Assembly (NCBI GenBank): GCA_963743305.1
Contig: CAVUPH010000017.1
Coordinates: 64,001 to 128,000, forward strand
DNA: 64,000 nt
DNA from: an uncultured delta proteobacterium
GTDB lineage: Bacteria; Desulfobacterota; RBG-13-43-22
Reading direction: 5' to 3'
The translations under genes and the position numbers were made by a program. A model generated the notes under the pieces. The model saw only the letters and a program-made list of their open reading frames with translations, was not told the DNA's origin and did not search any database. Every line of letters starts with the position of its first letter. Position 1 is the stretch's first letter. Shown in pieces: positions 367 through 59,834 of the stretch.

Positions 367-397
367 TCTATTTTCTTATTCATAACTTAAAGGACGC

Positions 398-706
398 TTC
401 GCCCTTTTGGGTGGGTAGTCCCTAGATCTGGTATGGCCGCGGGGTCTTGGCCAAAGGGTTTTCCAAAGGTACTCCGGACTTCGAATCCGGGCCTAACTTG
501 CTAATTTTATTTAAAGCAGGCCCATACTCAGTGTATTTTAATATCTTCTTGGCTAGCCCTATCTTCTGGAAACTTTGAATGTCAGGGGGCCGGGTTAGAA
601 CCTAAAAAGCAATATGGAAAGCCCTTTCGCCAAGACCCCGCGGCCACGGAGACCCGATTTCAGGTTAATCTACTATATATTATGGCCACCCACCCAAAAG
701 GGCGAA
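398..706. repeat. ~310-bp structured intergenic element, copy 1 (MITE-like or structured RNA)
   Basis: 19-bp perfect terminal inverted repeat TTCGCCCTTTTGGGTGGGT (398-416 / 688-706). Inner 32-bp inverted repeat at 434-465 / 615-646. Homologous along its length to 50565-50882. Confidence 0.9.
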
Positions 707-713
707 TAACCAC

Positions 714-4355: not shown

Positions 4356-5348
4356 ATGCTTGGCGGTTCAAAATCCAAATATTTTTGGTTCGTGTTGAGC
4401 GGGATATTGGCCGGGCTCTCTCCGGCTTACGGGCAGGCCCTGCGCCAGGCGACTTTTATTCCTCAATGGATCCCGCAAGCCCAGTTCGCGGGATATTATG
4501 TGGCTTACGAAAAGGGGTATTATCGGGAAAAGGGGATCGATCTTCAGCTCCTCAAGGGCGGACCGGAACGGCCTCCTTCGGAATGGCTGGAAAAGGGGTT
4601 GGCCGATTTCGGGTCCTTGATGCTTTCCCAGGCCATCAAGAAGAGGGCCGAAGGGGTTAAGTTGGTCAACATCGGGCAGATCATCCAGAAATCCTCCCTG
4701 ATGCTGGTGGCCAAGAAATCCAGGGGGATCCGAACGGTGCCGGATCTCCAGGGTAAAAAAATAGGGCTCTGGGAAACGGAGTTTCAAATTCAGCCCAGGG
4801 CCTTCTTTAAAATGCAGGGCCTGAAAATCATTCCGGTCAGGCAATCGGAGTCCGTGAATTTATTCCTGCGCGGGGCCGTGGACGCCGCCTCCGCCACCTG
4901 GTATAACGAATACCACCTGATCCTGAACGCCGGGTTAAACCCGGAGGAAGTGACTCCCTTTTTTTTCTCGGATTACGGCTTGAACTTTCCGGAGGACGGA
5001 TTGTATTGCCTGGAAAAGACCTGGCAAAAAGATCCCGCTTTGGCCTGCCGCTTTGTCCAGGCCTCCATCGACGGCTGGCGGGAGGCCTTCGATCATCCGG
5101 AAGAAGCGTTGGATATAGTCATGAAATATGCCCGGGAGGCCAAAACGGCCACCAACCGGGCCCACCAGAAATGGATGCTCCTGCGGATGAAAGACTTGAT
5201 CCAACCACGGGCGTCTCGGCACCCCCTGGGGTTATTGTCGGCCGAGGCGTATGCCCTGGTCGGGCAGACCATGCTTCGACAGCAGGTGATCGCCGTCCTT
5301 CCGCCCTTCGAAGATTTTTTTAAGAACTGTTTCGACCGTGCGCAATAA
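4356..5348 (+). CDS. NMT1/THI5-like periplasmic substrate-binding protein
   Basis: Signal peptide; QWIPQAQFAGYYVAYEKGYY and DLQGKKIG motifs. Confidence 0.85.
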   Translation: MLGGSKSKYFWFVLSGILAGLSPAYGQALRQATFIPQWIPQAQFAGYYVAYEKGYYREKGIDLQLLKGGPERPPSEWLEKGLADFGSLMLSQAIKKRAEGVKLVNIGQIIQKSSLMLVAKKSRGIRTVPDLQGKKIGLWETEFQIQPRAFFKMQGLKIIPVRQSESVNLFLRGAVDAASATWYNEYHLILNAGLNPEEVTPFFFSDYGLNFPEDGLYCLEKTWQKDPALACRFVQASIDGWREAFDHPEEALDIVMKYAREAKTATNRAHQKWMLLRMKDLIQPRASRHPLGLLSAEAYALVGQTMLRQQVIAVLPPFEDFFKNCFDRAQ

Positions 5349-12056: not shown

Positions 12057-12122
12057 GACGCGATCGGTGAGCGCGCCGCCTCTTGGAGAGGGCAGAGGAG
12101 AGAAAAGAGTGATAAACAGTCC

Positions 12123-12150
12123 GTCATGGCGAGCGAAGCGAAGCAATCTC
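12123..12150 (+). repeat. REP-like palindromic unit (GTCATnGCGAGCGAAGCGAAGCAATC family)
   Basis: 26/28 match to the reverse complement of 16641-16668; related to 36104-36212. Confidence 0.75.
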
Positions 12151-12170
12151 CCGGGTCGAACTTCTGAGAT

Positions 12171-16517: not shown

Positions 16518-16640
16518 TGTTTATGTAAAAAGATCTTGTTCTATCACACTAACCCCCATGCCTGCCTAAGCGGGCACCCACGAAGCATGAAAATATAAGC
16601 AATCTCCCGAAAGCTTTTAGCATCACCCCAGCTTGTCCGA

Positions 16641-16668
16641 GGGATTGCTTCGCTTCGCTCGCAATGAC
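16641..16668 (-). repeat. REP-like palindromic unit
   Basis: Inverted near-copy of 12123-12150. Confidence 0.75.
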
Positions 16669-16699
16669 AGACTATTTGAAAACGAAAAAGAGAATCGAG

Positions 16700-18864: not shown

Positions 18865-21004
18865 ATGACCGACGGTTTCAAAGACATCGAAAAGCTCGAG
18901 ACCGCTCTTTGGGAGGCGGCGGACAACCTGCGGGCCAATTCCAAGCTCACTTCCAGCGACTACTTCATGCCGGTCTTGGGAGTGATCTTCCTCCGTCACG
19001 CCGCCAACCGTTTCGAGGAGGCCAGACGACAGATCGAGGAGGATCAGGCGGCCGGCCGGATGCCCAAACGAAAAGTGGTGCCGGCCGATTATCTGCGCCG
19101 CCGCGCCCTCTGGCTCCCTGAGACCGCCCGTTATGACCGGATCATGGAGCAGGCCGCCGTCGGCGGCAGCGACCTTCCCGGCCTGGTGTCCGAAGCTATG
19201 ACCGCCATCGAGGAGGCCTTCGAGCCGCTGCAGGGTGTCCTTCCCAAAGATTACGGAATCTTCGAGCCCAAGGTGCTGGAAGACCTGATGCGGCTCTTCA
19301 ATAGCGAGCAGATCAAACAGGCCACCGGCGACGTCTTCGGCCGCATCTATGAATACTTCCTGGCCAAGTTTTCCGTCCAGAAAGCCCACGACAACGGGGA
19401 GTTCTTCACTCCCTCCTCCCTGGTCCAGACCATTGTCAATGTCATCGAGCCCGATCACGGCATTGTCTTCGACCTGGCCTGCGGCTCGGGCGGCATGTTC
19501 GTCCAGTCCAGCCACTTCATCGAACAGGAGGGCGGCGATACGGCCAAGAAGGTGGTCTTTTATGGCCAGGAGAAGAACCGCGACACCATCCGCATCGCCC
19601 AGATGAACCTGGCCGTCCACGGGTTGGAAGGCAAGATTGCCGAGGCAATCACCTATTACCAGGACGAGTATGCCCTGGCCGGCAAATGTGATTTCGTGAT
19701 GGCCAATCCGCCTTTCAACGTCGATCTGGTGGATGCCGAACGGATCAAGATCGACCCGCGCCTCCCTTTCGGGCTCCCGGGGGTGAACAAGCAGAAGAAG
19801 GTCTCCAACGGGAACTATCTCTGGATTTCCTATTTCTGGAGCTACCTGAACGAAAAGGGCCGGGCTGGTTTCGTCATGTCTTCCCAGGCCTCCAGCGCCG
19901 GGCACGGCGAGAAAGAAGTCCGACGAAAGATCGTCGAGACCGGGGATGTGGACGTGATGATTTCCATCCGCTCCAATTTCTTTTATACCCGATCCGTCCC
20001 CTGCGAACTCTGGTTTTTCGACCGGACCAAACCCCCCGAGCGACGGGACAAAGTGCTGATGCTCGATGCCCGAAACATTTACCGCAAAGTTACCCGCAAG
20101 ATTAACGATTTTTCCCCGGAACAGATGCGCAACCTTTCGGCCATCGTCTGGCTTTATCGGGGGCAATCGGATCGTTTCCTGTCTCTAGTAAGAAATTACT
20201 TGCATTCAGTGTGCGAGGAAGGCGCAGCCATTCCGGAAAAGCTGGCTATCTTCGAAAAGACACTAACTGAATTGCGCCAGCGTTTTGTGACGCTCGAAAA
20301 AACCGTTGCTGAGGTCTGAATAAATCGAAGATGAAAAGAAAAAGTCCCTGGCCGAAGCCGGTACGGAACTCAACGAAACCGGAAAATCCTACAAAATCGA
20401 CAGGGACAACCTGCTGACCGACCTTGGGGGTTTCCTGAAACGATTCGCCTCATCATTGCCGGAAAAAAATGATCCCCAACACAGAGCTCGCCGGATGTTC
20501 GAACCGACTGCCGAACGGATCAAGGGGCTTATCAAGCAAGTGGACTTGCTCTACAAGTTGGCCGCCCAGGTGGCCAACCTGGGAGCGGAATTCTCCCTCA
20601 CCCCCGGGAACGGGGGAGAGCGGGGTGAGGGGGCGCCTTATGAACGCCGCGCTACGGGCAGGCTGGTAAAACAGCTCGATGGAGAGCGCAAAGCAGCCGT
20701 TGAACAGCTCAAAAGGGCCGTTTACTTCCATAGACAGGTGATCTGGCTGCAGGATCGTTTCCCCAAGGCCGAACTGGAGGCCGTACTGGGGCTGGTGAAG
20801 CTGGTGGATGTCAAGGAAATCGAAGCGGCCGATTGGAGCCTCACTCCCGGCCGCTACGTCGGCGTTTCTCCGCCCGAGGAAGACGAGGACTTCGACTTCG
20901 AACAGACCCTGCGGGATATTCATACCGAGTTGGCCGACCTCAACAAGGAGGCAGGAGAATTGGCGGCGAAGATTCAGGAGAACTTCGAGGAGTTGGGGAT
21001 ATGA
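18865..21004 (+). CDS. hsdM: Type I R-M methyltransferase subunit, frameshifted near 20310-20325
   Basis: LWEAADNLR, GEFFTP, DLACGSGG, NPPF. The frame resumes (KIEDEKKK...) and runs into the WSLTPGRYVG C-terminus. Confidence 0.9.
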
Positions 21005-22131
21005 AGAAACAGATTCGGACGACCCCGGCGGCCAATGCTCCGGATCGTAAATCAAGGGGCAGAATACGCGAAGACGCCTCGTTCCCAGTGGCACCGCCTC
21101 ACGAGAGCTTACCCGTCAGCTACGCCTCCGTTCTCGGTGAGATCAAACAACGTATCCAGGCAGAGCGGCTGCGGGTTATTATGGCCGCCAATTCGGCCAT
21201 GATCATCCTGTATTGGGACATCGGTCGACTGATTTTAGATCGTCAAGAGCGTGAGAGCTGGGGCGCCAAGGTTATTGATCGGCTCTCCGCCGACCTGCGC
21301 GAAGCCTACCCGGATATGGGCGGATTATCTCCACGTAACCTCAAATATATGCGCGCTTTTGCGGCGGCCTGGCCGGACTCGTCAATTGTGCAACGGGTCG
21401 TTGCACAAATTCCCTGGAGGAGTAATATTGCCCTCCTGGACAAGTTGGATGATCCCGCCATTCGGCAATGGTATGCCGAAAAAACAATCGAACATGTCTG
21501 GTCACAACCGGTCCTTTGCTTTCAGATAGAATCCCAACTCCATTCCCGCCAGGGCAGGGCCGTAACAAACTTCGCCGCAACCCTTCCACCCGCTGACTCG
21601 GATATGGCGGCACAAGTCTTTAAAGACCCCTACCTCTTTGACTTTCTGGGCACCGCCGATCCACGCCGCGAACGGGAGATCGAGCAGGCCCTCATCGATC
21701 ATATCCAGCGCTTTCTCCTCGAACTCGGCGCAGGCTTTGCCTTCGTCGGGAGGCAGATCCATCTTGAATTTGCGAGCAACGACTATTACCTCGATCTCCT
21801 CTTTTATCACCTGAAACTGAGATGTTACGTCGTGGTGGAACTGAAGGCCGTCCCTTTCGACCCGGGTTTTGTCGGCACCATGAACATGTATCTCTCCGCG
21901 GTGGACGACCTGTTACGACACACTGACGATAAACCCTCCATCGGACTAATTCTATGCCGTTCGAAAAATAAACTGGTGGTGGAGTACGCTTTGCGCAATT
22001 TCAGGAAGCCAATCGGTGTTGCCGAATGGGAGACCAAAATCGTTAAGAAACTCCCAAAGGAATTCAAAGGGAGCCTTCCTACCGTAGAAGAGATTGAAGC
22101 GGAATTGACGTGGGATAGACGATTAAAATGA
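21001..22131 (+). CDS. yhcG: YhcG/DUF1016 PD-(D/E)XK nuclease
   Basis: LYWDIG, KDPYLFDFL, ELGAGFAFVGRQ, DLLFYH, VELK; ATGA overlap with hsdM. Confidence 0.92.
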   Translation: MKKQIRTTPAANAPDRKSRGRIREDASFPVAPPHESLPVSYASVLGEIKQRIQAERLRVIMAANSAMIILYWDIGRLILDRQERESWGAKVIDRLSADLREAYPDMGGLSPRNLKYMRAFAAAWPDSSIVQRVVAQIPWRSNIALLDKLDDPAIRQWYAEKTIEHVWSQPVLCFQIESQLHSRQGRAVTNFAATLPPADSDMAAQVFKDPYLFDFLGTADPRREREIEQALIDHIQRFLLELGAGFAFVGRQIHLEFASNDYYLDLLFYHLKLRCYVVVELKAVPFDPGFVGTMNMYLSAVDDLLRHTDDKPSIGLILCRSKNKLVVEYALRNFRKPIGVAEWETKIVKKLPKEFKGSLPTVEEIEAELTWDRRLK

Positions 22132-22187
22132 TCGATATAGCGGAACTGGTGGGGAAGGCCCAAGAGAACTTCGAGGAATTAGTATGA
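22128..22187 (+). other. 19-codon mini-ORF duplicating the hsdM 3' end
   Basis: MIDIAELVGKAQENFEELV* versus the HsdM end ELAAKIQENFEELGI*; ATGA overlaps with both yhcG and hsdS. Confidence 0.7.
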
Positions 22188-23323
22188 TTGGGAAAACTCT
22201 AACCATACTCTCAGACGTATGCGAGTCTATACGCTACGGCTACACGGCCTCAGCCAATCTTGATCCTTGCGGGCCGCGCTTCCTGCGCATCACTGACATT
22301 GTCCCCGATTCCCTGGACTGGGAAACGGTACCGTACTGCGAGATCGATGAAACCGACAGGGAGCGATTCGCTCTTGCGGTCGGTGACATTGTCGTTGCCA
22401 GAACGGGGGCGACTGTTGGATACGCGAAGCTCATTCGCGAACCGGTGGACGCTGTATTCGCTTCGTATTTGGTCCGCTTCCGGGTGGATACCACAAAGGC
22501 TGATCCAGCATATATTGGCAGGCTTGTCGAATCCCACGATTACAAGTCGTTCGTTAAATCCAGGATCGGCGGAGCCGCCCAACCCAACGCGAGCGCTCCG
22601 GTGCTCGGGAGCTTCGAGTTTCCCTTGCCGTCCCGGCACTCGCAGGAGCGCATCGCCGACATCCTCTCCGCCTACGACGACCTGATCGAGAACAACCGGC
22701 GTCGGATGGTGCTGTTGGAGGAGGCGGCGCGGCAGCTTTACCGGGAGTGGTTTGTCCGTCTCCGCTTTCCCGGGCATGAGCATACCCGGATTGTTGATGG
22801 CGTGCCCAAGAGATGGGAACGGATAGCATTTGAAAACGCCCTTGTCCTTCAACGTGGTTTCGATCTCCCCGTTCAGCTTAGGGAAGATGGTGATGTGCCA
22901 ATTTATGGCTCGACTGGTATCCTCGGATTTCACAGTAAAGCGAAGGTTACTGGTCCAGGTGTAGTTACTGGACGAAGCGGTACGCTTGGGGAAGTAAAGT
23001 ACGTTCCGGTTGATTTCTGGCCATTGAACACATCTCTATGGGTTAAGGAGTTCAGAAGGGCCACGCCATTTTTTTCTCTATTTCTAATGCGAGAGATGGA
23101 CCTAAAGAAGTATAATGGCGGAGTGTCAGTACCTACACTGGATCGGAAAACCGTCCATAAAACCCAAATTTTAATCCCTTCAAAAGACCTGCTTATGTTG
23201 TTTGACAATTTTATTAACCCGCTATTTCAGCAAGTTAACATTTTAAGCGGTCAAACCGAAAAACTAAGAACAGCCCGCGATATGCTCCTCCCTCGTTTGA
23301 TGAACGGGGAGATTGTACTATAA
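22184..23323 (+). CDS. hsdS: Type I R-M specificity subunit
   Basis: Two TRDs with conserved QERIADILSAYDDLIENN and RDMLLPRLMNGEI helices. Confidence 0.93.
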   Translation: MIGKTLTILSDVCESIRYGYTASANLDPCGPRFLRITDIVPDSLDWETVPYCEIDETDRERFALAVGDIVVARTGATVGYAKLIREPVDAVFASYLVRFRVDTTKADPAYIGRLVESHDYKSFVKSRIGGAAQPNASAPVLGSFEFPLPSRHSQERIADILSAYDDLIENNRRRMVLLEEAARQLYREWFVRLRFPGHEHTRIVDGVPKRWERIAFENALVLQRGFDLPVQLREDGDVPIYGSTGILGFHSKAKVTGPGVVTGRSGTLGEVKYVPVDFWPLNTSLWVKEFRRATPFFSLFLMREMDLKKYNGGVSVPTLDRKTVHKTQILIPSKDLLMLFDNFINPLFQQVNILSGQTEKLRTARDMLLPRLMNGEIVL

Positions 23324-23344
23324 CGCTGTTACTGCTTAAGAAGG

Positions 23345-24445
23345 ATGGCGTCTATGAATAACCTATACAAGCTAAAAATCGAGGGGTTCAAGTCTATAAA
23401 GAGTCAGGAGCTTGAGTTCGCACCCCTTAATGTTTTTATTGGGGGGAATGGGGCTGGCAAATCCAATCTAGTCAGCGTATTCCATTTCCTTCGGCGGATA
23501 GTCGACCAAGAGCTTCAAACATATACCGGTGAAGCAGGGGGGGCTAACGCCATACTCTACTTCGGCCGCAAGAAGACAGATAAACTCTCCATGAGAATTG
23601 AATTTCGCCCAGGCAGCGATGCGAACATATATGAGTTTGTTTTAATTCCGACGGATGATGATCGGTTTATCTTTGAGCGCGAAAATGCCTATTACTGGGC
23701 GACGGATCGGTTCGATGCCACTTACTTAGCCGATTCCTGGAAAGCTCACCGAGAGGCTCGAATTATAGAGGAGAAAAATCCGTCGCCGCCTACGTACGCG
23801 ACCATCTGGAAAGCTACCGCATTTACCACTTTCATGATACCAGTCCTTCCGCTGCGGTAAAACAAACCGGTGATGTGGCCGACAACCGGTTTTTACGACC
23901 CGATGCAGGCAATCTCGCCGCCTTCCTTTATAGGCTTCAGCAAAAACAACCTGATCATTTTGAAAATATCGAAGATACGGTAAGACAAGTGGCGCCATTT
24001 TGGGGACATTTCAAGCTGGAGACATCCCTCCTAAACCCCGATAGAAATTCGTCTGAATGGGAAGAAAAGGGGAGCGATGACCTATTTCAATGCCTCGGCA
24101 CTTTCGGATGGAACCTTACGTTTTATCTGCCTATCGACTCTCCTTCTTCAGCCGACCTTGCCTTCGCTCATTCTCATCGACGAGCCGGAACTGGGGCTTC
24201 ACCCGGCCGCCATCCAGGTCCTCGCCGGACTCCTCCAATCTGCGGCCACACGAACCCAATTGATTGTGGCCACCCAGTCGGTGACCCTTATCAACCAATT
24301 ACAACCGGAACACGTCTGGGTGGTGGGCCGGGAAGACGGCCAAAGTATTTTCCGCAACTTGAAGTCGGCAGATATGTCTGAGTGGCTCGAAGATTATGGT
24401 TTGGGAGAATTGTGGGAGAAGAATATCTTTGGAGGCCGTCCTTGA
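23345..24445 (+). CDS. ABC-type AAA ATPase (AAA_21-like), split by frameshifts near 23775 and 24050-24075
   Basis: IEGFKSI, GGNGAGKSN (Walker A), LSDGTLR, IDEPELGLHP (Walker B) and ATQS lie in three consecutive ORF fragments. Confidence 0.85.
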
Positions 24446-25101
24446 TGAAACGCGTTCTTGTGCTTGTGGAAGGACAAACCGAGGAACGTTTTATAAAAGA
24501 CGTGGTAGGGCCTCACCTTGAAGCAAAGGACATATACGCCATCCCAAAAGTCGTGACGACCAAACGAGTTAAGCAAGGGCCTGATTTCAAGGGCGGCATT
24601 ACCGATTATCAGAAGGTCGAAAACGATTTGAAACGGCTTCTTGGGGATTCAGATGCGGCTCTTATCACCACCTTTATAGACTATTATGGTCTTCCCCTGG
24701 AATTCCCAGGTATGGCTACCCGTCCGATAGCCTCCCCGCTAGAGAGGGCAAAACATGTGGAGATTGAATGGAAACGTCGGATAGACCACCCTCGTTTTCT
24801 ATCCTATTTAATGACCCACGAATTTGAAGCTCTTTTATTCTCCAAACCAGAAGAACTGAGTAGAGCGCTTTATCAATCGGATTTGGGGCCAAAACTCAAA
24901 ACCATCAGAGATTCATTTCCAACTCCTGAAGAAATTGACGATGATCCATTGACTGCTCCCTCGAAAAGAATATTGCGCCTCCTCCCGGCATACCAGAAGA
25001 CCGTTCATGGTCCGCTGGTAACCAGACGCATAGGTTTGGAAACCTTGCGTCGCGAATGTAGGCATTTCAATGACTGGCTTTTAAAGCTTGAAAGTATTTA
25101 G
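24445..25101 (+). CDS. DUF4276 family (TOPRIM-like) protein
   Basis: VLVEGQTEERF, DYYG, HEFEALLF, PSKRI, CRHFNDWL; coupled to the ATPase. Confidence 0.85.
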   Translation: MKRVLVLVEGQTEERFIKDVVGPHLEAKDIYAIPKVVTTKRVKQGPDFKGGITDYQKVENDLKRLLGDSDAALITTFIDYYGLPLEFPGMATRPIASPLERAKHVEIEWKRRIDHPRFLSYLMTHEFEALLFSKPEELSRALYQSDLGPKLKTIRDSFPTPEEIDDDPLTAPSKRILRLLPAYQKTVHGPLVTRRIGLETLRRECRHFNDWLLKLESI

Positions 25102-25116
25102 GATCAATAGGCTTAG

Positions 25117-28100
25117 ATGATCACCGACATCAACAGCGAAGACCGCCTGGTCCAGCAGACGTTTGCCGAGCATCTGCACGATAAACTCGGCTGGGACAGC
25201 GTCTATGCCTGGAACCAGGAAACCTTCGGACCGAACGGCACCTTGGGGCGGACCAGTGAGCGCGAAGCGATCCTGATGCGTGATCTGCGAAGGGCGGTGG
25301 CCGACCTCAATCAGGAATTGCCGGAAACGGCCCGGGATCAGGCGATAGAAAAACTTACCCGGGTGGACTATTCCCGATCACTGTTGCAGCATAACCGGGA
25401 ATTCTATGGTTTCCTCCGAAATGGCGTTCCGGTGGATTGGCGCGATACCCAAGGGGAGACGAAGCACGCCCGGGTGCAGGTCATCGATTTCCGGAATGCG
25501 GCCAATAATCGGTTTCTCGCGGTTCGGGAACTGAAATTCCAGGGAATGCGGGTCCCCCACTATAATGTCCGGGCGGACCTGGTCTGCTTTGTCAATGGCT
25601 TGCCGCTGGTTTTCATTGAACTGAAGGCAGTTTACAGGAACATCCGGCAGGGGTTCGATAATAATCTTACCTGGTACCTCGACCCGAACGTCGTTCCCCA
25701 GGCCTTTCATCACAACGTCTTTCTTATCGTCAGCAACGGCGACCGGGCCCGTTACGGATCTATCACCAGCCGCTGGGAGCACTTTGTCGAGTGGAAGCGC
25801 AATTCAGAAAAGGAAAAAGGCCGCCTGGAGGCCGAGGCCCTGCTGGAAGGGATGCTCGCCAAGGAAAATTTGCTCGATATCATTGAGAATTTTATTCTGT
25901 TTGACGACAGCCGGCCCGGCGGAACCCGTAAGATTATCGCCAGGAACCATCAGGTGCTGGGGGTGAATAACGCCGTCGCCTCGGTTCAGCGGCAGGAAGA
26001 ACTTAAGGTGGAGTTTCCAATGGACCGAAGGCTTCTTTCTTATACTTATACCGTTCCTGTATCCGAGATAAAAATCGCCGCGCGAAGAAGGTAAAGGAGA
26101 TGGGGCTCCGTATTGATCCTCAAAGACAGAAACCTGGAGGAACTACCCCTGGTGAAGCGGGCGCATCCGGACCTTGGCCGGTTGGGGGTTTTCTGGCATA
26201 CCCAGGGCAGCGGCAAATCCTATTCCATGGTATTCTTTACCGAGAAAGTCCGGCGGGTGGTACCGGGGAACTTCACCTTTGTCATCATGACCGACCGGGA
26301 TGATCTGGATGATCAGATCTGGAGGACCTTTATCGGTTGCGGGGCGGCGGATGAGAAGAATCCGCGAGCCAAGTCCGGTGACGACCTCAAAACACTCCTT
26401 TCTGAAAACCACCGGTTTATTTTCAGCCTGATCCACAAGTTCAACCAGGAGGTGACCGAACCCTATAGCGACCGGGACGACATCATCGTCATCTCGGACG
26501 AAGCCCACCGGACCCAGGCCGGGAAGTTTGCCCGCCATATGCGACTGGCGTTGCCGAACGCCTCTTTCATCGGCTTTACCGGCACCCCGCTGTTCAAACA
26601 CGACCATCTGACCAAGCGAATATTCGGAGGGTATGTCTCGCGCTACGACTTCAAACGTTCTGAGGAGGACCATTCCACGGTCAGGCTGGTCTACGAAAAT
26701 CGGGGAGAGAAGCTGGGTATTGCCCGGCTCGACCTGAACGATCGAATCGCTTCGAAGATTGAGGAGGCGGAACTGGATCCGGATCAGGCCGCGTTGTTGG
26801 ATAAATTGCTGGGCCAGGATTATGAGGTCATAACGGCCGATGATCGACTGGACAAGCTGGCTGAGGATTTTGTCGAGCATTGCTCCACCCGGTGGGAATC
26901 CGGCAAATCGATGCTGGTTTGTATTGACAAGATCACCTGCGGCCGGATGTATCAAAGGATCAAGCCCCGCTGGGAGGCCAAACTGGCGGTTCTTAAAACC
27001 GTTATCCGGGAAAAGGAAGCGGAATTAGCCAATAGTTCGGACCCGGACGAAATACAGCGGATAGACCGGGATCTTGAAAAACTGCGGGGACAAGTGGGTT
27101 GGATGGGGACCACCATCATCGAGTTCATCATCAGCGAAGCGCAACACGAAGTACGCGATTTTAAAAAGTGGGGGATCGATATCATTCCTCATCGGGAGGT
27201 TATAAAGACAGGTTTCCAAACGCCGGACGGTAAGCGGGTGGCCGTGGATGATGCCTTTAAAGACCCGGAGCATCCTTTTCGAATCGCCATTGTCTGTGCC
27301 ATGTGGCTGACCGGCTTTGACGTGGAATGTCTGTCCACCCTTTATATCGACAAACCCATGAAGGCCCACACCCTGATGCAGGCCATCGCCCGGGCCAACC
27401 GGGTGTATCCGGGGAAGGACTGCGGCGTGATCGTCGATTACAGCGGGATGCTCAAAAGTCTGCGGGAGGCCTTGGCCCAGTATGCCTTGGGAGACGATGA
27501 GCAGGAAGAAACAGGAGGTGAACTGGTTGCCCCGATTGAAGAACTGGTAGTGGCCCTGGTTCAGACGCTGGAGTCGGCGGAAAATCATCTCCGGTCACTA
27601 GGGTTTGAACCGAGCAAGGCTGAAAGGGGCCAAGGGATTTGACCGGATTCAGGCTCTACGCGACGCCGTCGAGGCCCTTTATTCATCGGACGAAGCCAAG
27701 CGCCGGTTTGAAATTATGGCCCGACAGGTCTTTATTCGATTTAAGGCGCTGCTGATGGAACCCAGTGCCTTTGCTTATATCGAACGACACGACAATATTG
27801 AAACGATTTACAAGAAACTGGAAGAGAAAAGAGATACGGCCGATGTGACCGAGGTTTTAAAAGAACTGCATCGGATCGTCAACGAAGCCATCCGGGCCCA
27901 GGAACCGGGGGATGATCATGCCGAAGGGCTTACCGTGGACCTGAGCCGGATCGATTTCGTCAAGTTGCGTGACGAGTTCGCCAAAAAAATAAAACGAAAG
28001 CATACCGCCTTGCAGGACATCCGGGAGATCGTGGAAAAGAAGCTCCAGCAGATGTTGGCCCGAAATCCGCAGCGAATGGACTATTACAAAAAATATCAGG

Positions 28101-28538
28101 AGATTATCGCTGACTACAACCGAGAAAAGGACCGGGTGACCGTAGAGGAGACCTTTGCCAGGCTTTTTGATCTGGCCAACAATCTGGACGCCGAACAAAA
28201 GCGGGCGGTGCAGGAAGGATTGAGTGAGGATGAGTTGGCGCTTGTTCGATCTGCTTTTTAGAGATAATATCAGCAAAGCCAGACCGGGAAAAGCTCAAAC
28301 AGGCCAGCCGGACTCTCCTGGCTTCGCTCCAGGAATTGATCAAGCCTATGCCGACCTGGACGCAAAACTCCCAGACCCAAGCGGAGGTCAAGGTCTGGTC
28401 CTCGATACCCTTTGGGAAAAACTGCCGCGGCCGCCCTTTACCGAAGAAGATGCGGAAACACTTGCAGAGCGGGTTTATGACTTTGTCTGGCAGCAGAGTG
28501 CCGGGGGTCGGTTCTTGGAAAATATGAGGGCGGCCTGA
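25117..28538 (+). CDS. hsdR: Type I R-M restriction subunit, split by about 4 frameshifts
   Basis: ADLVCFVNGLPLVFIELK nuclease motif, WHTQGSGKS, DEAHR, GFTGTP, MWLTGFD, QAIARANR in consecutive fragments. Confidence 0.9.
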
Positions 28539-28662
28539 TCTAAACCCTGTTAGCCTTATTGGCCAATGGGTTTGAAACCGAAAATCATAGAAATGGGGTA
28601 GGTAAATGGCAACCGAGGCTAAGGATCTGTAAACAAATAACCTTGACAAAGCGGCCCGACAA

Positions 28663-28729
28663 CCGTTCACCCTGAGCTTGTCGAAGGGTGAAGGATACGG
28701 CCATGCTTCGACAGGCTCAGCATGAACGG
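28663..28729. repeat. REP-like inverted repeat (CTGAGC..GTCGAAG / CTTCGAC..GCTCAG family)
   Basis: ccgttcaccctgagcttgtcgaag pairs imperfectly with cttcgacaggctcagcatgaacgg. Confidence 0.75.
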
Positions 28730-28831
28730 AGATATCAGCGGTATTGTACAGCTTATTTTTTGACGGGTTCTAAGTTAAAAGAGTTGGAAAAAATTGCCGA
28801 AGAAATGAACGCTATTGACCGGACCAAGCTT

Positions 28832-28953
28832 CTGGGCAACCCGGTGGTCTTTATCGGCCCTAATAATTCAGGGAAGACCTCGGCCTTGCAGGCCCTGGCG
28901 CTCTGGGAGATCGGCCTTAAGAAATGGAATGAAAAACGTGAAGGCAAGTCGGC
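28832..28953 (+). pseudogene. Duplicated 5' fragment of the downstream ATPase gene
   Basis: ~122-bp direct near-repeat of 29633-29753; encodes LGNPVVFIGPNNSGKTSALQALALWEIGLKKWNEKR. Confidence 0.85.
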
Positions 28954-28985
28954 GAAGCGTGCTCCAAAAGAGGGAGGGTATTTAA

Positions 28986-29300
28986 TTGGTCAATGAAGAA
29001 CTGCTAAAGATTGTCGTAAAGCGATTGGCTGATAATTTCCACCCCCAAAAAATAATCCTTTTTGGTTCCCAAGCCAAAGGAACGGCGGATGACCGCAGCG
29101 ATGTTGACCTTCTGGTCATCTGTCCGATCAAAGGGTCCCGAAGGGGGAAAATGGTGGCTATGGATCGTTCCCTGCGGGGGTTGGGGTTGGCCAGGGATAT
29201 CGTTCTTCTTACGCCGGAAGAGTATGAGCGGGACCGCTTTATACCGGGGACCATCGCCCGACCGGCCTCGCAAGAGGGGAGGGTTCTATATGAATCCTAG
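28986..29300 (+). CDS. Minimal nucleotidyltransferase (MNT antitoxin)
   Basis: IILFGSQAKG...SDVDLLV motif, 104 aa. Confidence 0.9.
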   Translation: MVNEELLKIVVKRLADNFHPQKIILFGSQAKGTADDRSDVDLLVICPIKGSRRGKMVAMDRSLRGLGLARDIVLLTPEEYERDRFIPGTIARPASQEGRVLYES

Positions 29301-29540
29301 TGATGTTGAAATCCGCATACATATAATATTTCCAGGCTCTTGGAACTCTGCGCCGAAAAAGCAGATTGGCCGGGAACGGTTTTGGAAGCGGAGGAATTGA
29401 CCCCTTACGCCATAACCACCCGCTATCCTGGAGAGGATGAAAGGGTTACGAAACAGGAGGCCTTGAGGGCGATTTATATTTCCGAAAAGGTTCGAAAAAT
29501 AATTAGAAAAGTTTTAAGAAAGGATGGATTAAATTATTAA
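29290..29540 (+). pseudogene. HEPN-domain remnant with internal deletion
   Basis: Only the C-terminal half (PHTYNISRLLELC...LTPYAITTRYPG) is present, out of frame with the ATG at 29290. Confidence 0.7.
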
Positions 29541-29575
29541 AATGCGTTCTTCCATATTTATTTAGAGGGTTTTTT

Positions 29576-31317
29576 ATGCTTACCAAATTAACCATCCATA
29601 ATTTTAAGCGGTTTGGCGCGGTGGAGATCGAGCTGGGAAATCCGGTGGTCTTTATCGGCCCCAACAATTCGGGAAGACCTCGGCCTTGCAGGCCCTGGCT
29701 CTTTGGGAGATCGGTCTTAAAAAATGGAATGAAAAACGCAAAGGCAAATCGGCTCCGGAAAAGCGGCCGGGGGTGACCATCAACCGGAAAGACCTGGTCT
29801 CCATCCCCGTTCCGGATGCCAACTTGTTGTGGCGGGATCTGCACGTTCGGGATGTTCAGAAAAGTGAAGGGAAGCCGCAGACAAAAAATATCCGGATCGA
29901 GATTGTCGTGGAGGGTATCACTAACGATAAATCCTGGGTCTGTGGGTTGGAATTTGACTATGCCAACGAGGAGTCTTTTTACTGCCGCCCGCTCCGGTCA
30001 GGCGAATCGGAGGGCGAGCCGGGCCGCATGGTTATTCCGGACGAAGCCGAGTTGGTGCAAACGGCCTTTCTGCCCCCCATGTCCGGTTTGGCGGCCAATG
30101 AAACCCGTCTGGATGACGGGGCCATTAATGTCCGGGTCGGGGAAGGAAGGACAGCCGAGGTTCTGCGGAACCTTTGCCAAAAAGTTTTTGAGCGTCAGAA
30201 CGGTTGCTGGGACAGGATGGTCGGGCAAATCCAGTCACTTTTCGGAGCGGACTTGGATGTCCCCCAATATATTCCCGAACGCGGGGAAATCAAACTAAGC
30301 TACAAAGAAAATGGAAGATCCTACGACTTGTCCTCTTCCGGCAGAGGGTTGCAGCAGACCCTTCTGCTTCTGTCTTATATGTATGCCAACCGGGGGGCCG
30401 TTTTATTACTGGATGAACCCGACGCCCATCTGGAAATCCTCCGCCAGCGGCAGATTTACCAACTGCTGATCGATGTGGCCCGGGAAAACGACAACCAGAT
30501 AATCGCCGCCAGCCATTCCGAGGTGCTGCTTAATGAGGCCGCTGAGAGAGACGTGGTGGTGGCCTTTGTGGGAACCCCTCACCGGATGGATGACCGGGGC
30601 AGTCAGGTTCTGAAGGCCCTGAGGGAAATTGGGTTCGAGCATTATTATCAGGCGGAACAAACCGGATGGGTCCTTTATCTGGAAGGCTCTACGGACCTGG
30701 CCATTCTCAGGGCTTTGGCGGAAAAAATCGGCCATGAGGACGCGATTCGAGTGCTGAACAAACCATTTGTCCACTATATCCGAAATCAGCCGCAGGAAGT
30801 CTTAAGGCATTTTCACGGCTTAAGGGAAGCCACCCCAAAGTTAATGGGTGTGGCCATTTTTGACCGGCTGGAGCAGGAAATTCCCGCTATTAATGGAGTA
30901 GAGTGCCTGGAGTGGCGGCGAAGAGAGATCGAAAATTACTTGTGCTACATAGAAACACTTTTTGAATATGCCAAGGCCACGAGCCAAGTCGATTCCATCG
31001 GCCCCCTTTTTGCCGCCGGGGAAGCCTCCCGCCGAATGAAGGCGATGGAAGAGGCCATAGAGGAAGTCACCCGGGCCATGGAGACCTTTGGCAAAGGTTC
31101 CCCTTGGGACGTTAATACCAAGGTCAGCGACGATTTTCTGGATCCCCTGTTCAGGTCCTATTTTAGGAGACTGGGGCTCTATAATGTAATGGCCAAGAAA
31201 AATTTCCATGAACTGGCTTACTTTGTCCCGGAAGATAAGATTGACCCGGAAGTGAAAGAGAAACTGGATGCCTTAGTCAAAGTGGCCAATTCAGCCAAGC
31301 CGTTTGAAAACCAATAG
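29576..31317 (+). CDS. OLD-like ABC ATPase with C-terminal TOPRIM-like region; 1-bp deletion at ~29670
   Basis: LTIHNFKRF, GPNNSG(KT), SSGRG, LLDEPDAHL, ASHS, then VLYLEGSTD...IFD...RREIENY. Confidence 0.8.
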
Positions 31318-31329
31318 AAAATATCTATT

Positions 31330-31484
31330 GATAACCTCGCAAAAAATCAAAAAACGACTTTCTGCTCGGCGGGGGATGGCTTCCCCTCCCCCGCCATTTG
31401 AAATGAATTCAAATGGTGCCACCCCTACCCCAGCCCGGCGCTTAATCTCGCCCGGGCTGTTGACGGACTTTTTGCGAGTCCGTC
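31330..31484. mobile_element. Degenerate MITE-like element
   Basis: Imperfect 19-bp terminal inverted repeats (14/19): gataacctcgcaaaaaatc / gactttttgcgagtccgtc. Confidence 0.5.
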
Positions 31485-31498
31485 TCTATTGACTGTTT

Positions 31499-33946
31499 GT
31501 GTGGATGGAAAATACTGAGGATTTCAAAAAGCAACTGGATAAGGCCCTGAATGAGTGCGCTCGCCTGAAGGCTGAAAATGACCGGTTGCGCCGGAGGCTC
31601 GGTGGTATCCCGGAAGGGGAACATTTGACTCCTGAAAAGACCCTTGCAGAACCCAACCTTCCTTTCACGCCAGCGGCCTTTAAGATTACCAATGATTCTC
31701 CTCCGAAAGAAAAAATAGGCCTCTTTAAAAGTCTTTTCCGCGGCCGGGAAGATGTTTATCCGGTTCGCTGGGAGCGGAAGGATGGCCGGTCCGGGTATTC
31801 TCCGGCTTGCGTTCTCGAATGGAAAAGGCCCCTGTGCGGGAAACCGCTGGTAAAATGCGGGGACTGCCGCCATCGAAAATTCTTGCCGGTTACTGAGGAA
31901 GTCCTCCACCACCATCTTATTGGGAAGCACACCATCGGGGTGTACCCCCTGCTTCCGGATGAAACCTGCTGGTTTCTGGCTGTCGATTTCGACCGGAAGA
32001 CCTGGCAGGAAGACGCCGGGGCTTTTATGGCCACCTGCCAAAAGATGGCCATACCGGCGGCCCTGGAAAGGTCCCGCTCCGGGGAAGGGGGACATGTCTG
32101 GCTGTTCTTCCAAAGTCCGGTTTCGGCCTCCCTGGCTCGAAAATTGGGCTGCGCGATCCTGACCCGCACCCTGGAGGAACGGCATCAACTCGGCCTGGAT
32201 TCCTACGATCGTTTCTTCCCCAACCAGGATACGCTGCCCAAGGGCGGATTTGGCAATCTGATCGCCCTTCCTTTGCAGTGGGGCCCCCGGGAAACGGGGA
32301 ACAGTGTTTTTTTGAATCCGGATGGAGTCCCCTATCCGGACCAGTGGGTTTTCCTGTCCGGTCTCGACCGGCTCCCGGTTGAGATCGTGGAAGCACGGGT
32401 TGGTGAGGCCTCCCGGGCCGGGAAAATAATATCCGTTCGACAAATCCCGACCGATGAACAGCTCGAGGAAGATCCTCGGCCCGATTTCCCTTCCGGAAGC
32501 AGAACGGCAAGACCCCCGGCCGGACCTTGGCCGAAACAGATCCGTCTGGTGATCAGTGATTTGATCTATATCGAAAAAGAGGGTTTGCCCCCGTCCATGC
32601 TCAACGCCTTAACCCAGTTGGCGGCCTTTCAAAATCCTGAGTTTTACCGGGCTCAGGCTATGCGCCTGCCGATCTTTAATATTCCCCGGATCATTTGCTG
32701 CGCGGAGGATTTTCCCCAACAGATCGGCCTGCCCCGGGGATGCCTGGAAGAGGTGTTGCGTTTCTTTGAAGATGGCGGCACCGCCGTGACAATCGATGAT
32801 CGACGAAATGAGCCCACCCCGATCAGGGTTCATTTTCTCGGGGAACTCCGTCCCGATCAGGAAGAGGTGGCTAGAAACCTATTGGGCTATGAAAATGGGA
32901 TCCTTTCCGCCCCCACCGCCTTTGGTAAAACGGTCATCGCGGCCTGGGTCATTGCCCAAAGGAAGGTCAGCACGCTGGTTCTGGTCCATCGAAAACAGCT
33001 CCTGGATCAGTGGCGGGATCGATTAGCCGATTTTCTGGATCTGCCCAAAAGTGAAATCGGTCAGATCGGAGGGGGAAAAGGGCAGCCGACCGGGGTGATC
33101 GACGTGGCGGTCCTTCAAAGCCTGGTTCGAAAAGGCGTGGTTAAGGATATCATTTCCGAATATTCACAGGTTATTGTGGACGAGTGCCATCATATCCCGG
33201 CCTTCAGCTTTGAGCAGGTCTTAAAGAAGGCCAGAGCCCGATTTGTCCTGGGCCTGACGGCTACCCCAATCCGGAAAGACGGCCACCAGCCCATACTAAT
33301 GATGCAATGCGGTCCCGTACGGTCTAAGGGGCAGGCCAAAAAAAGCGTTCAGGATGATCCCTTTGAGCATGTGGTCCTTCCGCGCTTGACCGAATTCAAT
33401 ATACCTCCCCATAAAGATCTGACCATTCAGGAAATCTATAACGCTATGCTGTTCGATCAGGCCCGAAATGACTTGATTTTCGATGATTTGTTAACCGCCC
33501 TGGAAGCCGGCCGATCTCCCCTTTTACTGACCGAACGAACGGAACATCTCGACCTGCTGGCCGGAAAGCTCAAAAACTTCGCCAGGAATATGATTATCTT
33601 GAAGGGCGGCATGGGGAAGAAGCAACGGACCGCCGTCAACGAACAAATGAAGTCCATCCCGGACCGGGAAGAGCGCCTGATACTGGCCACCGGCCGGTAC
33701 ATCGGCGAGGGGTTTGACGATGCCCGCCTGGATACGCTGTTTCTGGTCATGCCCATCTCCTGGCGGGGCACACTGCAACAATATGTGGGACGTTTGCATC
33801 GACTCCATGACAATAAACGGGTGGTGCAGGTTTATGATTATGTGGATAAAAAAGTCCCGATGCTGATGCGGATGTACCACAAGCGGCTGATCGGCTATAA
33901 GGCCCTTGGCTATAAATTAGAAATACCAAGTGGCCGGCAAGCTTAA
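31499..33946 (+). CDS. AEP primase-like (TOTE-conflict type) domain fused to a ResIII-like SF2 helicase
   Basis: FRGREDVY, FLAVDFD, SRSGEGGHVW, GNLIALPLQ; APTAFGKT, DECHH, GLTATP, QYVGRLHR. Confidence 0.85.
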   Translation: MWMENTEDFKKQLDKALNECARLKAENDRLRRRLGGIPEGEHLTPEKTLAEPNLPFTPAAFKITNDSPPKEKIGLFKSLFRGREDVYPVRWERKDGRSGYSPACVLEWKRPLCGKPLVKCGDCRHRKFLPVTEEVLHHHLIGKHTIGVYPLLPDETCWFLAVDFDRKTWQEDAGAFMATCQKMAIPAALERSRSGEGGHVWLFFQSPVSASLARKLGCAILTRTLEERHQLGLDSYDRFFPNQDTLPKGGFGNLIALPLQWGPRETGNSVFLNPDGVPYPDQWVFLSGLDRLPVEIVEARVGEASRAGKIISVRQIPTDEQLEEDPRPDFPSGSRTARPPAGPWPKQIRLVISDLIYIEKEGLPPSMLNALTQLAAFQNPEFYRAQAMRLPIFNIPRIICCAEDFPQQIGLPRGCLEEVLRFFEDGGTAVTIDDRRNEPTPIRVHFLGELRPDQEEVARNLLGYENGILSAPTAFGKTVIAAWVIAQRKVSTLVLVHRKQLLDQWRDRLADFLDLPKSEIGQIGGGKGQPTGVIDVAVLQSLVRKGVVKDIISEYSQVIVDECHHIPAFSFEQVLKKARARFVLGLTATPIRKDGHQPILMMQCGPVRSKGQAKKSVQDDPFEHVVLPRLTEFNIPPHKDLTIQEIYNAMLFDQARNDLIFDDLLTALEAGRSPLLLTERTEHLDLLAGKLKNFARNMIILKGGMGKKQRTAVNEQMKSIPDREERLILATGRYIGEGFDDARLDTLFLVMPISWRGTLQQYVGRLHRLHDNKRVVQVYDYVDKKVPMLMRMYHKRLIGYKALGYKLEIPSGRQA

Positions 33947-33964
33947 ATGATTCGTAGACCAGGG

Positions 33965-33993
33965 TTGATAGATTCTGTCTTTATCGATATAAT
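33965..33993 (+). promoter_or_regulatory. Near-consensus sigma70 promoter
   Basis: TTGATA-N17-TATAAT. Confidence 0.65.
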
Positions 33994-34018
33994 TATGCTG
34001 AAGAGGTACTTATTCCCT

Positions 34019-34285
34019 ATGAATTACCTGAAAGCCGCATTTTGGGACTACCCTCAGTTTACCGAGGAGGCAACGCTCCGGGCTTGTTTGCAGGAGCGGA
34101 AGGATACCACCTTGTATTTTTGGCTAATGAGTAGATTTCTGGAATACGCTCGGGTCGTGGATACCCTGAAATTTTTTGCGATAGACGAAATTGCCGGACA
34201 ATTGTCCAGGCTGAAGCTTCGGCCCTATACCCGAATAAAATGGACCCGGATGGTCGAGATCTATGGAACCTCTTCAGGAAAATAA
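34019..34285 (+). CDS. Small putative antitoxin (FWD-motif, DUF6922-like)
   Basis: MNYLKAAFWDY; overlaps the AbiEii-type gene; start chosen downstream of the promoter. Confidence 0.6.
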   Translation: MNYLKAAFWDYPQFTEEATLRACLQERKDTTLYFWLMSRFLEYARVVDTLKFFAIDEIAGQLSRLKLRPYTRIKWTRMVEIYGTSSGK

Positions 34286-34952
34286 AGCCGGTTACGCCTC
34301 GGCCGCCCAACGGGAGGTTTTACTGAGCCTAGTGGAACACCCGACCATTCGTGATGTTTCATTTCTGACCGGCGGGACGGCCCTTTCCGTTTTTTATCTC
34401 AGTCACCGTGTATCGGATGATATCGATTTGTTTTCCGTTGAACCGATTGATTTGCCGGAGTTGGATTTTTGGACTAAGACCCGCTGGGGGGCGCGCTGTT
34501 CCCAACTCCGGAAGAGCCCCCAATTCCTCTCCCTATTAATCGACGGGGTTAAGGTCGACCTGGTAATAGACCCTCTTTCTTTTCGAGATCCACGGCAACG
34601 ATTCGAGTTCGATAGCCAGAGATCTCTTCAGGTGGACACTCTGTCCAACATTGCCTCCAATAAACTCACCGCCGTCGTGAGTAGAACGGAACCAAAAGAT
34701 TATGTCGATTTGTATTTGATCCTCAAGATTTTTCCTGAATATAGGTTGGAAGGCCTTTATCAAAAAAGTCGTTTGAAAGATGCTATCTTTGATGACCCAC
34801 CAACGGCTGCTTTTCAATTGGAGACCGGTGTTGCTTTTTTAAAGGAAAACCCATCTCTTAAGCCAAAGATGATCAAGGAATTAAATTGGGAGGATCTTTT
34901 CGATTTTTATAGGCGGTTAACTCGCTGGGTCTATGACTTGGTCAAACTGTAA
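34263..34952 (+). CDS. AbiEii/AbiGii-family nucleotidyltransferase toxin
   Basis: LTGGTALS...HRVSDDIDLF, NKLTA..SR...KDYVDLY. Confidence 0.88.
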   Translation: MEPLQENKAGYASAAQREVLLSLVEHPTIRDVSFLTGGTALSVFYLSHRVSDDIDLFSVEPIDLPELDFWTKTRWGARCSQLRKSPQFLSLLIDGVKVDLVIDPLSFRDPRQRFEFDSQRSLQVDTLSNIASNKLTAVVSRTEPKDYVDLYLILKIFPEYRLEGLYQKSRLKDAIFDDPPTAAFQLETGVAFLKENPSLKPKMIKELNWEDLFDFYRRLTRWVYDLVKL

Positions 34953-34961
34953 CTTTTCCAA

Positions 34962-36095
34962 ATGGAACCACTACCGACATTAACCCCGATTCCCGCAGCG
35001 ACTGCCTGCTGACCCTCCAAGGCCCCGGCTCAGGTGAGCCCGCCCCGGATGGATCAGCCTTTCGTGATTGGCCGGATCACTACCCCTGTGGGTGAGGTGC
35101 CGCAGGTTTCTTCCGAACTGACGCCGGCCGATCGGTGGGGCGCGGTCAAGGCTCGCTGGGGGGTGGGACGGATGCATTTCACCGTCGATCCCGGGCTGTA
35201 TGCCCTGGGAAATCCCAACGGAGAATCTTCGGTCCTGGTTACCGCCAATTACAAAATGAGCTTCGACGCCCTGCGTCGGGCCTTGCCCGGTCTGGAGGCC
35301 TGGATTCTGGTGCTGGATACCCGAGGGATCAACGTCTGGTGCGCCGCCGGCAAGGGCACCTTCGGGACCGGGGAACTGGTTGGGAGGATCCAGAGTAGTG
35401 GTTTGGAGCAAGTCGTTAAACGTCGAAAAATAATCTTGCCGCAGTTGTCCGGTCCGGGCGTGGCCGGTCATCAGGTGAAAAAAATGTCAGGCTTCCAGGC
35501 GGTCTTCGGGCCCGTCCGGGCCTACGACCTGCCTGCTTATCTTTCGGCCGGCTGCCGGGCCACCCCGGACATGCGCCGCAAGACCTTCACCCTTCGGGAA
35601 CGGGCCGTCCTGATCCCCGTGGAGCTGGTGCAGGCCCTCAAGCCCGCTTTGCTGGTCATGCTGGCCTTTTTTCTGCTAAGCGGTCTTGGAGGATCGGCCG
35701 GATATTGGACCAATCTCGGGCATAATGGCCCCTGGTCGGTACTGGGTATCCTATCGACCCTGTTGACCGGAGCCGTATTGACACCCCTATTACTGCCCTG
35801 GGTCCCCGGCCGGGCTTTTTCACTCAAAGGTTGGATTCTTGGTCTGGCTTCGGCCTGGGGCTTTATACTCTTGCGGGGATTTTCTCCAAGAAGCGGATTT
35901 CATCCGTTGGAAGCCCTGGCCTGGCTGCTCCTTTTGCCGGCCTTATCGGCCTACCTGGCCATGAATTTTACCGGGGCCTCGACCTATACTTCCCTTTCCG
36001 GGGTCAAGAAGGAAATGCGCTGGGCCGTGCCCCTGGAAATCGGTTTTGGTGCTGCCGGTTTAATACTCTGGGTGGCGGCGCGATTTTATTTTTAA
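34962..36095 (+). CDS. hgcA: Mercury methylation corrinoid protein HgcA, probably with N-terminal Cys-Sec
   Basis: TANYKMSFD, cap-helix NVWCAAGKGTFG, C-terminal TM domain with NFTGASTYTSLSGVKKEM. An in-frame ATG at 34962 and TGC-TGA at 35007-35012 precede the tracked ORF (35034). Confidence 0.95.
35010..35043 (+). promoter_or_regulatory. Candidate Sec codon plus bacterial SECIS hairpin
   Basis: TGA followed after 14 nt by GGCTC-AGGT-GAGCC; G-containing AGGT loop reminiscent of the E. coli fdhF SECIS. Confidence 0.65.
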
Positions 36096-50463: not shown

Positions 50464-50564
50464 CCTTGGAAAAAAGAAAACTATTCCCCGGGCTTTTTTC
50501 TAAAGTTAAAAAAAGCGGCGGAGTTTGAAGTGAGGGGAGGAGCAGCCGGAATTATTTTCGGCGC

Positions 50565-50882: not shown

Positions 50883-50887
50883 CAACC

Positions 50888-59712: not shown

Positions 59713-59790
59713 ACCTTTGGAAAACCCTTTGGCCGTTCCCCGCAGCTTTAGCGGATAGACCGGTGGACCCACCCAAAAGGGAGAAGCGTC
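59713..59790. repeat. 78-bp inverted fragment of the 310-bp element
   Basis: First 22 nt identical and last 24 nt 23/24 identical to the reverse complement of 393-470. Confidence 0.85.
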
Positions 59791-59834
59791 GAAAAAATAG
59801 TCGAAAGAATATTAAGGATCGAAGGAAGAACTAA

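Follow-up and report, generated by a model that had tools for sequence, protein, structure and literature searches.

A nested inverted repeat from an uncultured deltaproteobacterial lineage is a MITE of a new family whose mirrored arm changes are better explained at the DNA level than by RNA selection

We studied a 64,000-nt window of contig CAVUPH010000017.1 (assembly GCA_963743305.1, positions 64,001-128,000) from an uncultured delta proteobacterium; window coordinates below are counted from its first nucleotide. An earlier note on this sequence had described two copies of a structured intergenic element at 398-706 and 50565-50882, and whole-length alignment bears this out: the copies align end to end, with a mean column identity of 87% when flanks are included. 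The element is, however, 5 nt longer at each end than the note had placed it. Copy 1 occupies 393-711 on the plus strand (319 bp, full length, profile positions 1-319, nhmmer E=2.7e-105). Its left terminal inverted repeat (393-416, plus strand) consists of an end-specific GACGC of 5 nt followed by a perfect 19-nt core, and its right terminal inverted repeat (688-711, plus strand) consists of the perfect 19-nt core followed by an end-specific 5-nt TAACC, which reads CAACC in most copies; the terminal repeats are thus 24 bp long and imperfect. Copy 2 occupies 50560-50887 on the plus strand (328 bp, nhmmer E=5.1e-106). The inverted-repeat coordinates of the cores, 398-416/688-706 in copy 1 and 50565-50583/50864-50882 in copy 2, confirm the perfect 19-bp terminal stem reported for both copies, and in both of them the 19-bp repeat extends imperfectly to 36 nt with 78-83% complementarity. 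Immediately outside copy 1 lie the target-site duplications ACTTAAAG (385-392) and ACTTAAAA (712-719), identical at 7/8 positions, the right one overlapping the stop codon of a phosphoesterase gene on the minus strand (714-1439). Copy 2 has TTATTTTC on both sides, at 50552-50559 and 50888-50895, with 8/8 positions identical. The earlier statement that no target-site duplication is visible was therefore wrong.

Within the terminal repeats the sequence pairs imperfectly in an outer zone and also forms a second inverted repeat, 32 bp long, which makes the element a nested foldback. In copy 1 the left arm of this inner repeat lies at 434-465 (plus strand, 32 bp), with a variable box GCGG at 439-442, and the right arm at 615-646 (plus strand), with the box partner CCGC at 638-641; in copy 2 the arms lie at 50600-50632 and 50791-50823. 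Complementarity is 94% over 32 nt in copy 1 and 91% over 33 nt in copy 2, in agreement with the long inner stem described before. Also real are the five mirrored differences between the copies, namely GCGG against ATCT at 439-442 together with 638-641, and T against C at 448 together with 632. A unit can be divided into three layers, all of them asymmetric, namely its 5-nt ends, its outer segments, which measure 17 nt on one side and 41 nt on the other, and its centre. All three are in standard orientation in copy 1, whose centre (466-614, plus strand) comprises 149 nt of non-coding sequence and contains the hairpin CCGGA/CTTCGAA/TCCGG at 474-490, which is present as had been stated.

Some features of the element vary on a smaller scale. 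Copy 2 carries a 9-nt tandem duplication of a CCAAAGGT motif at 50627-50644, at the inner end of its left inner arm, which is unique to this copy. The copies at loci L021, L037 and L038 have an extra 12-nt insertion at the 3' edge of the centre (A5 alignment columns 230-241), which builds a small GC-rich hairpin, GCCCGCC / GGCGGGC. Copy 1 has 7 GGCC sites and copy 2 has 10, or 22-30 per kb; compared with the window-wide density of 11.6 per kb, this is a modest enrichment of 2- to 2.6-fold. Several of the sites stand at the starts of repeat arms, where they might be candidate binding sites.

A third copy, truncated to profile positions 1-80 and missed by the earlier note, occupies 59711-59795 of the window (minus strand), directly against the stop codon of an FtsX-type permease gene. 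This remnant is orthologous to one in locus L035 (4943-5024). The two differ in a middle block of ~32 nt and match on both sides of the block, while the genomes that hold them are 95.6% identical overall. The pattern suggests that the block was replaced from a template and did not arise by point mutation; a source for the replacement was not found.

Elsewhere in the window, a different inverted repeat pair of 41 nt (12114-12154 / 16637-16677, 88% complementary) brackets ~4.5 kb with dehydrogenase and transporter genes; it has one 28-nt match in L046 and may represent another small repeat family. Positions 18865-36000 form a defence island with type I restriction-modification genes hsdM, hsdS and hsdR, the last apparently split into two ORFs (25117-26094 and 26113-27642), together with genes for a YhcG/DUF1016 nuclease, an AAA_21 ATPase, a TOTE-type primase-helicase and an AbiEii toxin. 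A direct repeat of ~120 nt with 88-92% identity (28832-28953 / 29633-29753, 800 nt apart) lies directly upstream of the AAA_21 ATPase gene region and within it. On the minus strand, 41504-44854 encodes a 1116-aa RHS/YD-repeat protein, the source of the short internal repeats D3 and D6.

One scan of a species-representative genome collection with the terminal 19-mer returned 53 loci, of which 43 fall in three related MAGs labelled 'uncultured delta proteobacterium' (31, 10 and 2 loci). The other 10 come from unrelated phyla, and by our own arithmetic ~9 chance matches are expected in 596 Gb; 9 of these 10 had no further similarity to the element profile and were set aside. In L033, from a Chloroflexia-labelled MAG, positions 4996-5043 are a ~45-nt remnant of the left end of the element (nhmmer E=2.8e-8). 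The G+C content of this contig, 0.56, is the same as that of the deltaproteobacterial loci, and L033 may have been mis-binned or may reflect a transfer. The profile search, based on 19 standard copies and run on the window and the loci, matched the window and all 43 deltaproteobacterial loci, giving 29 full-length copies and ~27 truncated or short ones (~56 instances). The further copies that the earlier note had suggested looking for thus exist, as a dispersed family. The window is 95.6% identical to L035, from the largest MAG, over 8.8 kb and ~87% identical to L011, from the second MAG, and therefore belongs to the same lineage.

The ends of the element were defined from 24 full-length copies aligned with their flanks and from the listed ends of 41 copies, both full-length and short. 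Conservation runs 5 nt past the 19-bp repeat, as GACGC on one side and CAACC on the other, and then stops sharply. Directly outside the ends is an 8-nt direct repeat whose sequence differs from copy to copy. Among 35 two-ended copies, the 8-nt flanks are at least 7/8 identical in 21, and perfect in 9. When left and right flanks were paired at random (2000 shuffles), a mean of 0.24 copies and a maximum of 3 copies reached 7/8 or better. The 8-nt repeats are target-site duplications. The asymmetric CGC and AACC flanks that the earlier note had seen extending past the repeat are thus part of the element itself, its outermost 5 nt and true termini, and the window units are accordingly 393-711 and 50560-50887. 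The 19 pairs of the terminal core are near-invariant, with 97.4% of cells paired in 20 aligned standard-orientation copies, a conservation inflated by the ascertainment of copies through the exact 19-mer.

All 29 full-length copies are intergenic, and their neighbours are housekeeping genes such as mreB, PEPCK, ftsH, rtcB, dapB and rpsF. For the 26 copies with a called ORF on both sides, the flanking genes are divergent in 11 cases, tandem in 12 and convergent in 3. The 8-nt flanks are 85% A+T, and no conserved target tetranucleotide was seen among them.

Besides the duplications, two observations speak of movement. First, L011 carries a short copy of ~120 nt, flanked by TTTTTTTT, in the interval that separates genes for a CBS-domain protein and a penicillin-binding protein. 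The same point is uninterrupted and T-rich in L035 and in the window, where this empty orthologous site lies at approximately 61815-61824, directly after a terminator-like hairpin. Second, five copies of one MAG (L001, L006, L023b, L031 and L036) are near-identical, with branch lengths of 0-0.018, and they occupy different loci, each with its own duplication. Therefore the family has been recently active.

The element encodes no protein, the longest ORF inside copy 1 being 43 aa, and the variable columns show no codon 3-periodicity (26/29/25), so a protein-coding reading was rejected. Pfam searches found no transposase, HUH, RT or recombinase domain in the 39 ORFs of the window, in line with the earlier remark that no transposase is visible, nor in 19 ORFs beside solo ends or in 51 ORFs flanking full-length copies; a transposase, HUH or RT gene beside the copies, as the note had envisaged, was thus not found among these ORFs. 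An all-against-all search of 365 ORFs gave no multi-copy ORF, and ~0.5 Mb of sequence yielded no autonomous partner with matching ends. A 100-aa GIY-YIG protein adjoins L001, an association that does not recur. The element would be mobilised in trans, a proposal against which the lack of a partner in this sequence counts. Its ends matched none of the elements with which they were compared. By blastn there was no match to the element in 72,556 plasmids, the end sequence and its complement appeared in no paper found by the full-text search, and a literature search for MITEs with 8-bp duplications in deltaproteobacteria returned nothing relevant. The element is a non-autonomous mobile element (MITE) of a new family.

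The earlier note had offered, as one of two candidates, a hairpin-recognised non-autonomous mobile element. Its mobile part stands, on the duplications, the dispersed and recent copies and the empty site; recognition as a hairpin found no support. Such an element would be a single-strand transposon of the IS200/IS605 type (an analogue of PATEs or REPINs) mobilised by an HUH/Y1 enzyme. For REPINs, which RAYT (HUH) enzymes mobilise, target duplications are not known, and Y1 transposases are not known to produce any. The extensive secondary structure of the element would suit a transposon of this type, as would the lack of a DDE transposase among the genes searched. By contrast, the element has 8-bp target-site duplications, its ends are symmetrical inverted repeats instead of two different subterminal hairpins, its targets share A+T richness but no tetranucleotide, and the scanned neighbours have no Y1 or RAYT domain. 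We therefore regard a single-strand transposon as highly improbable. The 8-bp duplication and the symmetrical form of the terminal repeats indicate an ordinary cut-and-staggered-join transposase rather than an HUH enzyme that reads hairpins. On the other hand, the outermost 5 nt differ between the two ends, which is unusual for transposase substrates and counts against the MITE model.

The mirrored differences in the inner stem had also been read as a possible mark of an undescribed structured RNA. In this explanation, the element would be, or would carry on a mobile unit, a non-coding RNA whose helices are under selection for the fold, and the mirrored changes would be truly compensatory. The predicted folds are very stable, with z about -9: compared with 100 shuffles, z was -8.95 and -8.72 for the two strands of copy 1 and -9.89 and -8.21 for those of copy 2, and 0/100 shuffles were as good in either copy. 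Covariation was assessed in 20 co-linear full-length copies, the 9 copies with an inverted layer being left out as not alignable co-linearly. There were 33 double-change cells against 8.3 in shuffles, and 0/500 shuffles reached the observed value. The larger alignment that the earlier note had called for thus contains significant covariation, but in the inner inverted repeat only: covarying pairs are 8/26 in the inner stem and 0/19 in the terminal stem, with none in the centre helices. Two adjacent pairs of alignment columns, 51/273 and 52/272, are saturated with changes and show three pair types each; all 20 copies have a Watson-Crick pair at both, and a broken pair occurs in 0/20. Near-invariant blocks of the centre, including the hairpin at 474-490, would also suit an RNA, as would the position of copy 1 between two co-directional genes, where co-transcription is probable.

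Several properties of the family do not fit with an RNA. Double-sided changes in the centre helices number 0, and the two strands fold equally well. The asymmetry between G:U and A:C mismatches by which one strand would be told from the other is absent: the two strands have 9 and 7 G:U-compatible mismatches in the inner stem, 10 and 6 in the terminal one, and each stem has another 9 mismatches that are transversions. Nor is there any orientation preference relative to genes, the centre running in the same direction as its tandem flanking genes in 6 cases and opposite to them in 6. The 11 of 26 copies between divergent genes are placed where read-through transcription is not expected, and a layer is reverse-complemented within the unit in 9/29 copies, which would rewrite any single transcript. 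No Rfam family was matched: Rfam 15 gave 0 matches at gathering thresholds in the whole window, and at E<=10 only two chance-level hits on 300-800, neither of the tRNA clan, while ARAGORN found 0 tRNA or tmRNA genes in the window. With covariation confined to a DNA inverted repeat, no strand bias and random orientation relative to genes, the proposal of a structured RNA is left unsupported, and we consider it unlikely.

The earlier note had likened the hairpin at 474-490 to a T-arm. The pair that closes its loop is A-T, and T-arms typically close the loop with G-C. Together with the empty ARAGORN result and the lack of a tRNA-clan hit, this led us to drop a tRNA-like identity; the resemblance is superficial.

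The variable box deserves separate consideration. At 0.68 per site, it is as diverse as the most variable columns of the centre; diversity is 0.055 in the remaining inner stem and averages 0.165 over the centre. For this reason, the box looks like an unconstrained spacer within an arm that is otherwise constrained in sequence. Two other ideas about the box were rejected: that it is hypervariable beyond neutrality, since its diversity is that of the most variable centre columns, and that it is the target duplication of a nested inner element, since the two boxes are inverted and not direct.

The layers of the element turn relative to each other. All of them agree in 20/29 full-length copies, and at least one is inverted in the other 9. 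The centre is reverse-complemented with respect to the ends and outer segments in six copies (L007a, L017, L024, L050, L030b and L042b). In L013a the outer segments and the centre are inverted together relative to the ends, in L052 the outer segments alone are inverted, and in L043 the centre is inverted with an ambiguous outer orientation. Relative to the ends, the centre is thus inverted in 8/29 full-length copies, copy 1 not among them. The junctions of the inversions fall exactly at the repeats. The 8 centre-inverted copies are scattered over the copy tree: orientation changes 8 times on the ML tree, and supported branches alone require 2 or more changes.

Inversion exactly at repeat boundaries would be expected of an invertible DNA switch, in which the inner (and terminal) repeats serve as recombinase sites and the 2-4-nt box as a crossover core that needs to match. 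The box, flanked by near-invariant sequence and always matching its partner, would fit this role. Yet there is little dyad symmetry around it, and its variability is not above that of the most variable centre columns. Beside the copies examined there are no recombinase genes, and neither window copy contains a sigma-70-type promoter or a terminator consensus. Moreover, L007a and L050 keep the same flipped state in two species, and flipping must therefore be rare. An invertible switch of this kind is, in our judgement, very unlikely.

Other copies record what happens when arms interact as DNA. In L018 and L042b both ends are of the left type, and mirroring continues into the flanks for 8-13 nt past the element, which would fit hairpin-templated copying of one arm that overshot the element. 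Many of the short derivatives are hairpin collapses at microhomologies, and L011 and L029 share one such junction. The 'compensatory' changes are better accounted for by recombination between the arms as DNA, or by templated conversion, than by selection on an RNA, because the covariation is confined to the inner repeat, strand and orientation bias are absent, layers are inverted and flanks are mirrored. Between the two causes that the earlier note had allowed for the maintained fold, selection and arm-to-arm conversion, the inversions and mirrored flanks thus speak for conversion, and selection on an RNA lacks support. Nevertheless, selection for pairing would also give the 0/20 broken pairs at the two most variable stem positions, and conversion alone does not explain the invariance of the remaining stem (0.055, compared with 0.165 in the centre).

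One pair of copies complicates this view. L007a and L050 represent one insertion shared by two species, with orthologous flanking genes and the same flipped centre. At four-fold degenerate sites of five flanking gene pairs, the two loci are 62.2% identical (n=754). Their elements are identical at 243/302 positions (binomial P 5e-12), their inner stems at 54/56 (binomial P 2e-9) and their centres at 117/149 (binomial P 1.5e-5). The box, on the other hand, differs at 4/4 positions (TTCC vs GCAG) and is complementary within each copy. The relatives are MAG assemblies, in which an assembly artefact at inverted repeats is possible; the flipped state common to L007a and L050 in two independent MAGs argues against one. 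Such conservation above the four-fold sites, which an RNA would also be expected to show, is unlike a decaying MITE and would need either host-level selection or ectopic conversion from other copies. On the tree, L007a and L050 are not sisters, and L007a groups with copies of its own genome. This single pair therefore favours ectopic conversion between copies. Alternatively, the sequence and the strict arm complementarity of old insertions might be actively maintained, by programmed inversion or arm-to-arm copying, or because the host uses the element, in intergenic regions close to promoters, as a signal in the form of structured DNA or RNA. This idea is suggested by the conservation of L007a and L050 above synonymous sites and by a box that is fully replaced yet paired; we hold it to be unlikely.

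Taken together, we put at roughly 80% the probability that the element is a MITE moved by a transposase encoded elsewhere, with arms kept complementary mainly by DNA-level events. In this model, the transposase would insert the 319-bp unit into A+T-rich intergenic DNA and duplicate 8 bp of the target, a pattern that would be the signature of a staggered-cut, presumably DDE-type, enzyme. Two events between the arms, which we infer in preference to selection for pairing, would keep them complementary: recombination across the repeats, inverting whatever lies between them, and the copying of one arm from the other as template in the hairpin. The arm sequence would be under additional selection, probably as protein-binding sites for mobilisation. 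The 2-4 box positions would drift to saturation and be copied from arm to arm, giving rise to the mirrored differences.

The main value of these results is a correction: the mirrored stem changes mark a mobile inverted repeat with DNA-level exchange between its arms, and not a new RNA. They also advise caution in covariation-based RNA discovery in MITE-rich genomes. One 319-bp unit exemplifies nested-repeat inversion, conversion overshooting into the flanks and hairpin-collapse deletion, and the family marks recent transposition in an uncultured soil deltaproteobacterial lineage.

Among known repeats, ERIC/IRU elements of enterobacteria and Correia elements (CREE) of Neisseria are imperfect palindromic, MITE-like intergenic repeats of ~100-170 bp, conserved across species and with variant end combinations; Correia elements duplicate TA. 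The present element is alike in being an imperfect palindromic intergenic repeat, and ERIC and Correia elements are shorter. Nested invertible layers are, to our knowledge, not a described feature of either. REPINs (PMC3116915) are non-autonomous palindromic doublets that evolve within genomes. The element shares with them the lack of autonomy and the palindromic form; unlike REPINs, it has 8-bp duplications.

For the exchange between arms, a known mechanism is the quasipalindrome template switch of E. coli (PMC7202029), by which replication copies one arm of an imperfect inverted repeat from the other; it is described for short quasipalindromes in laboratory assays. Such a switch would yield the mirrored changes of the family and, in L018 and L042b, the mirrored flanks too; in these uncultured bacteria, it would have to act on arms ~150 nt or more apart. 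A precedent in a mobile repeat is bcr1, as reviewed by Delihas (2011, Genome Biol Evol, PMC3184786). This Bacillus cereus group element is dispersed, MITE-like and ~155 bp long, with 5-bp direct repeats; it is transcribed, and compensatory base-pair changes keep its double-stranded structure. As far as that account goes, bcr1 and our element are alike as dispersed MITE-like repeats with target duplications and compensatory changes, and since the bcr1 changes are in print, compensatory change in a mobile repeat is not new. The element differs from bcr1 in its 319-bp length, its 8-bp duplications and the evidence that favours DNA-level conversion. In the general description of bacterial MITEs given in the same review, most are <200 bp and some ~400 bp, they have terminal inverted repeats and direct-repeat target duplications, they lack a transposase, and they occur in multiple intergenic copies with long stable stem-loops. 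The element shows each of the features listed in that description. What sets it apart from bacterial MITEs is the nested double foldback, with two enclosed layers that occur in all relative orientations.
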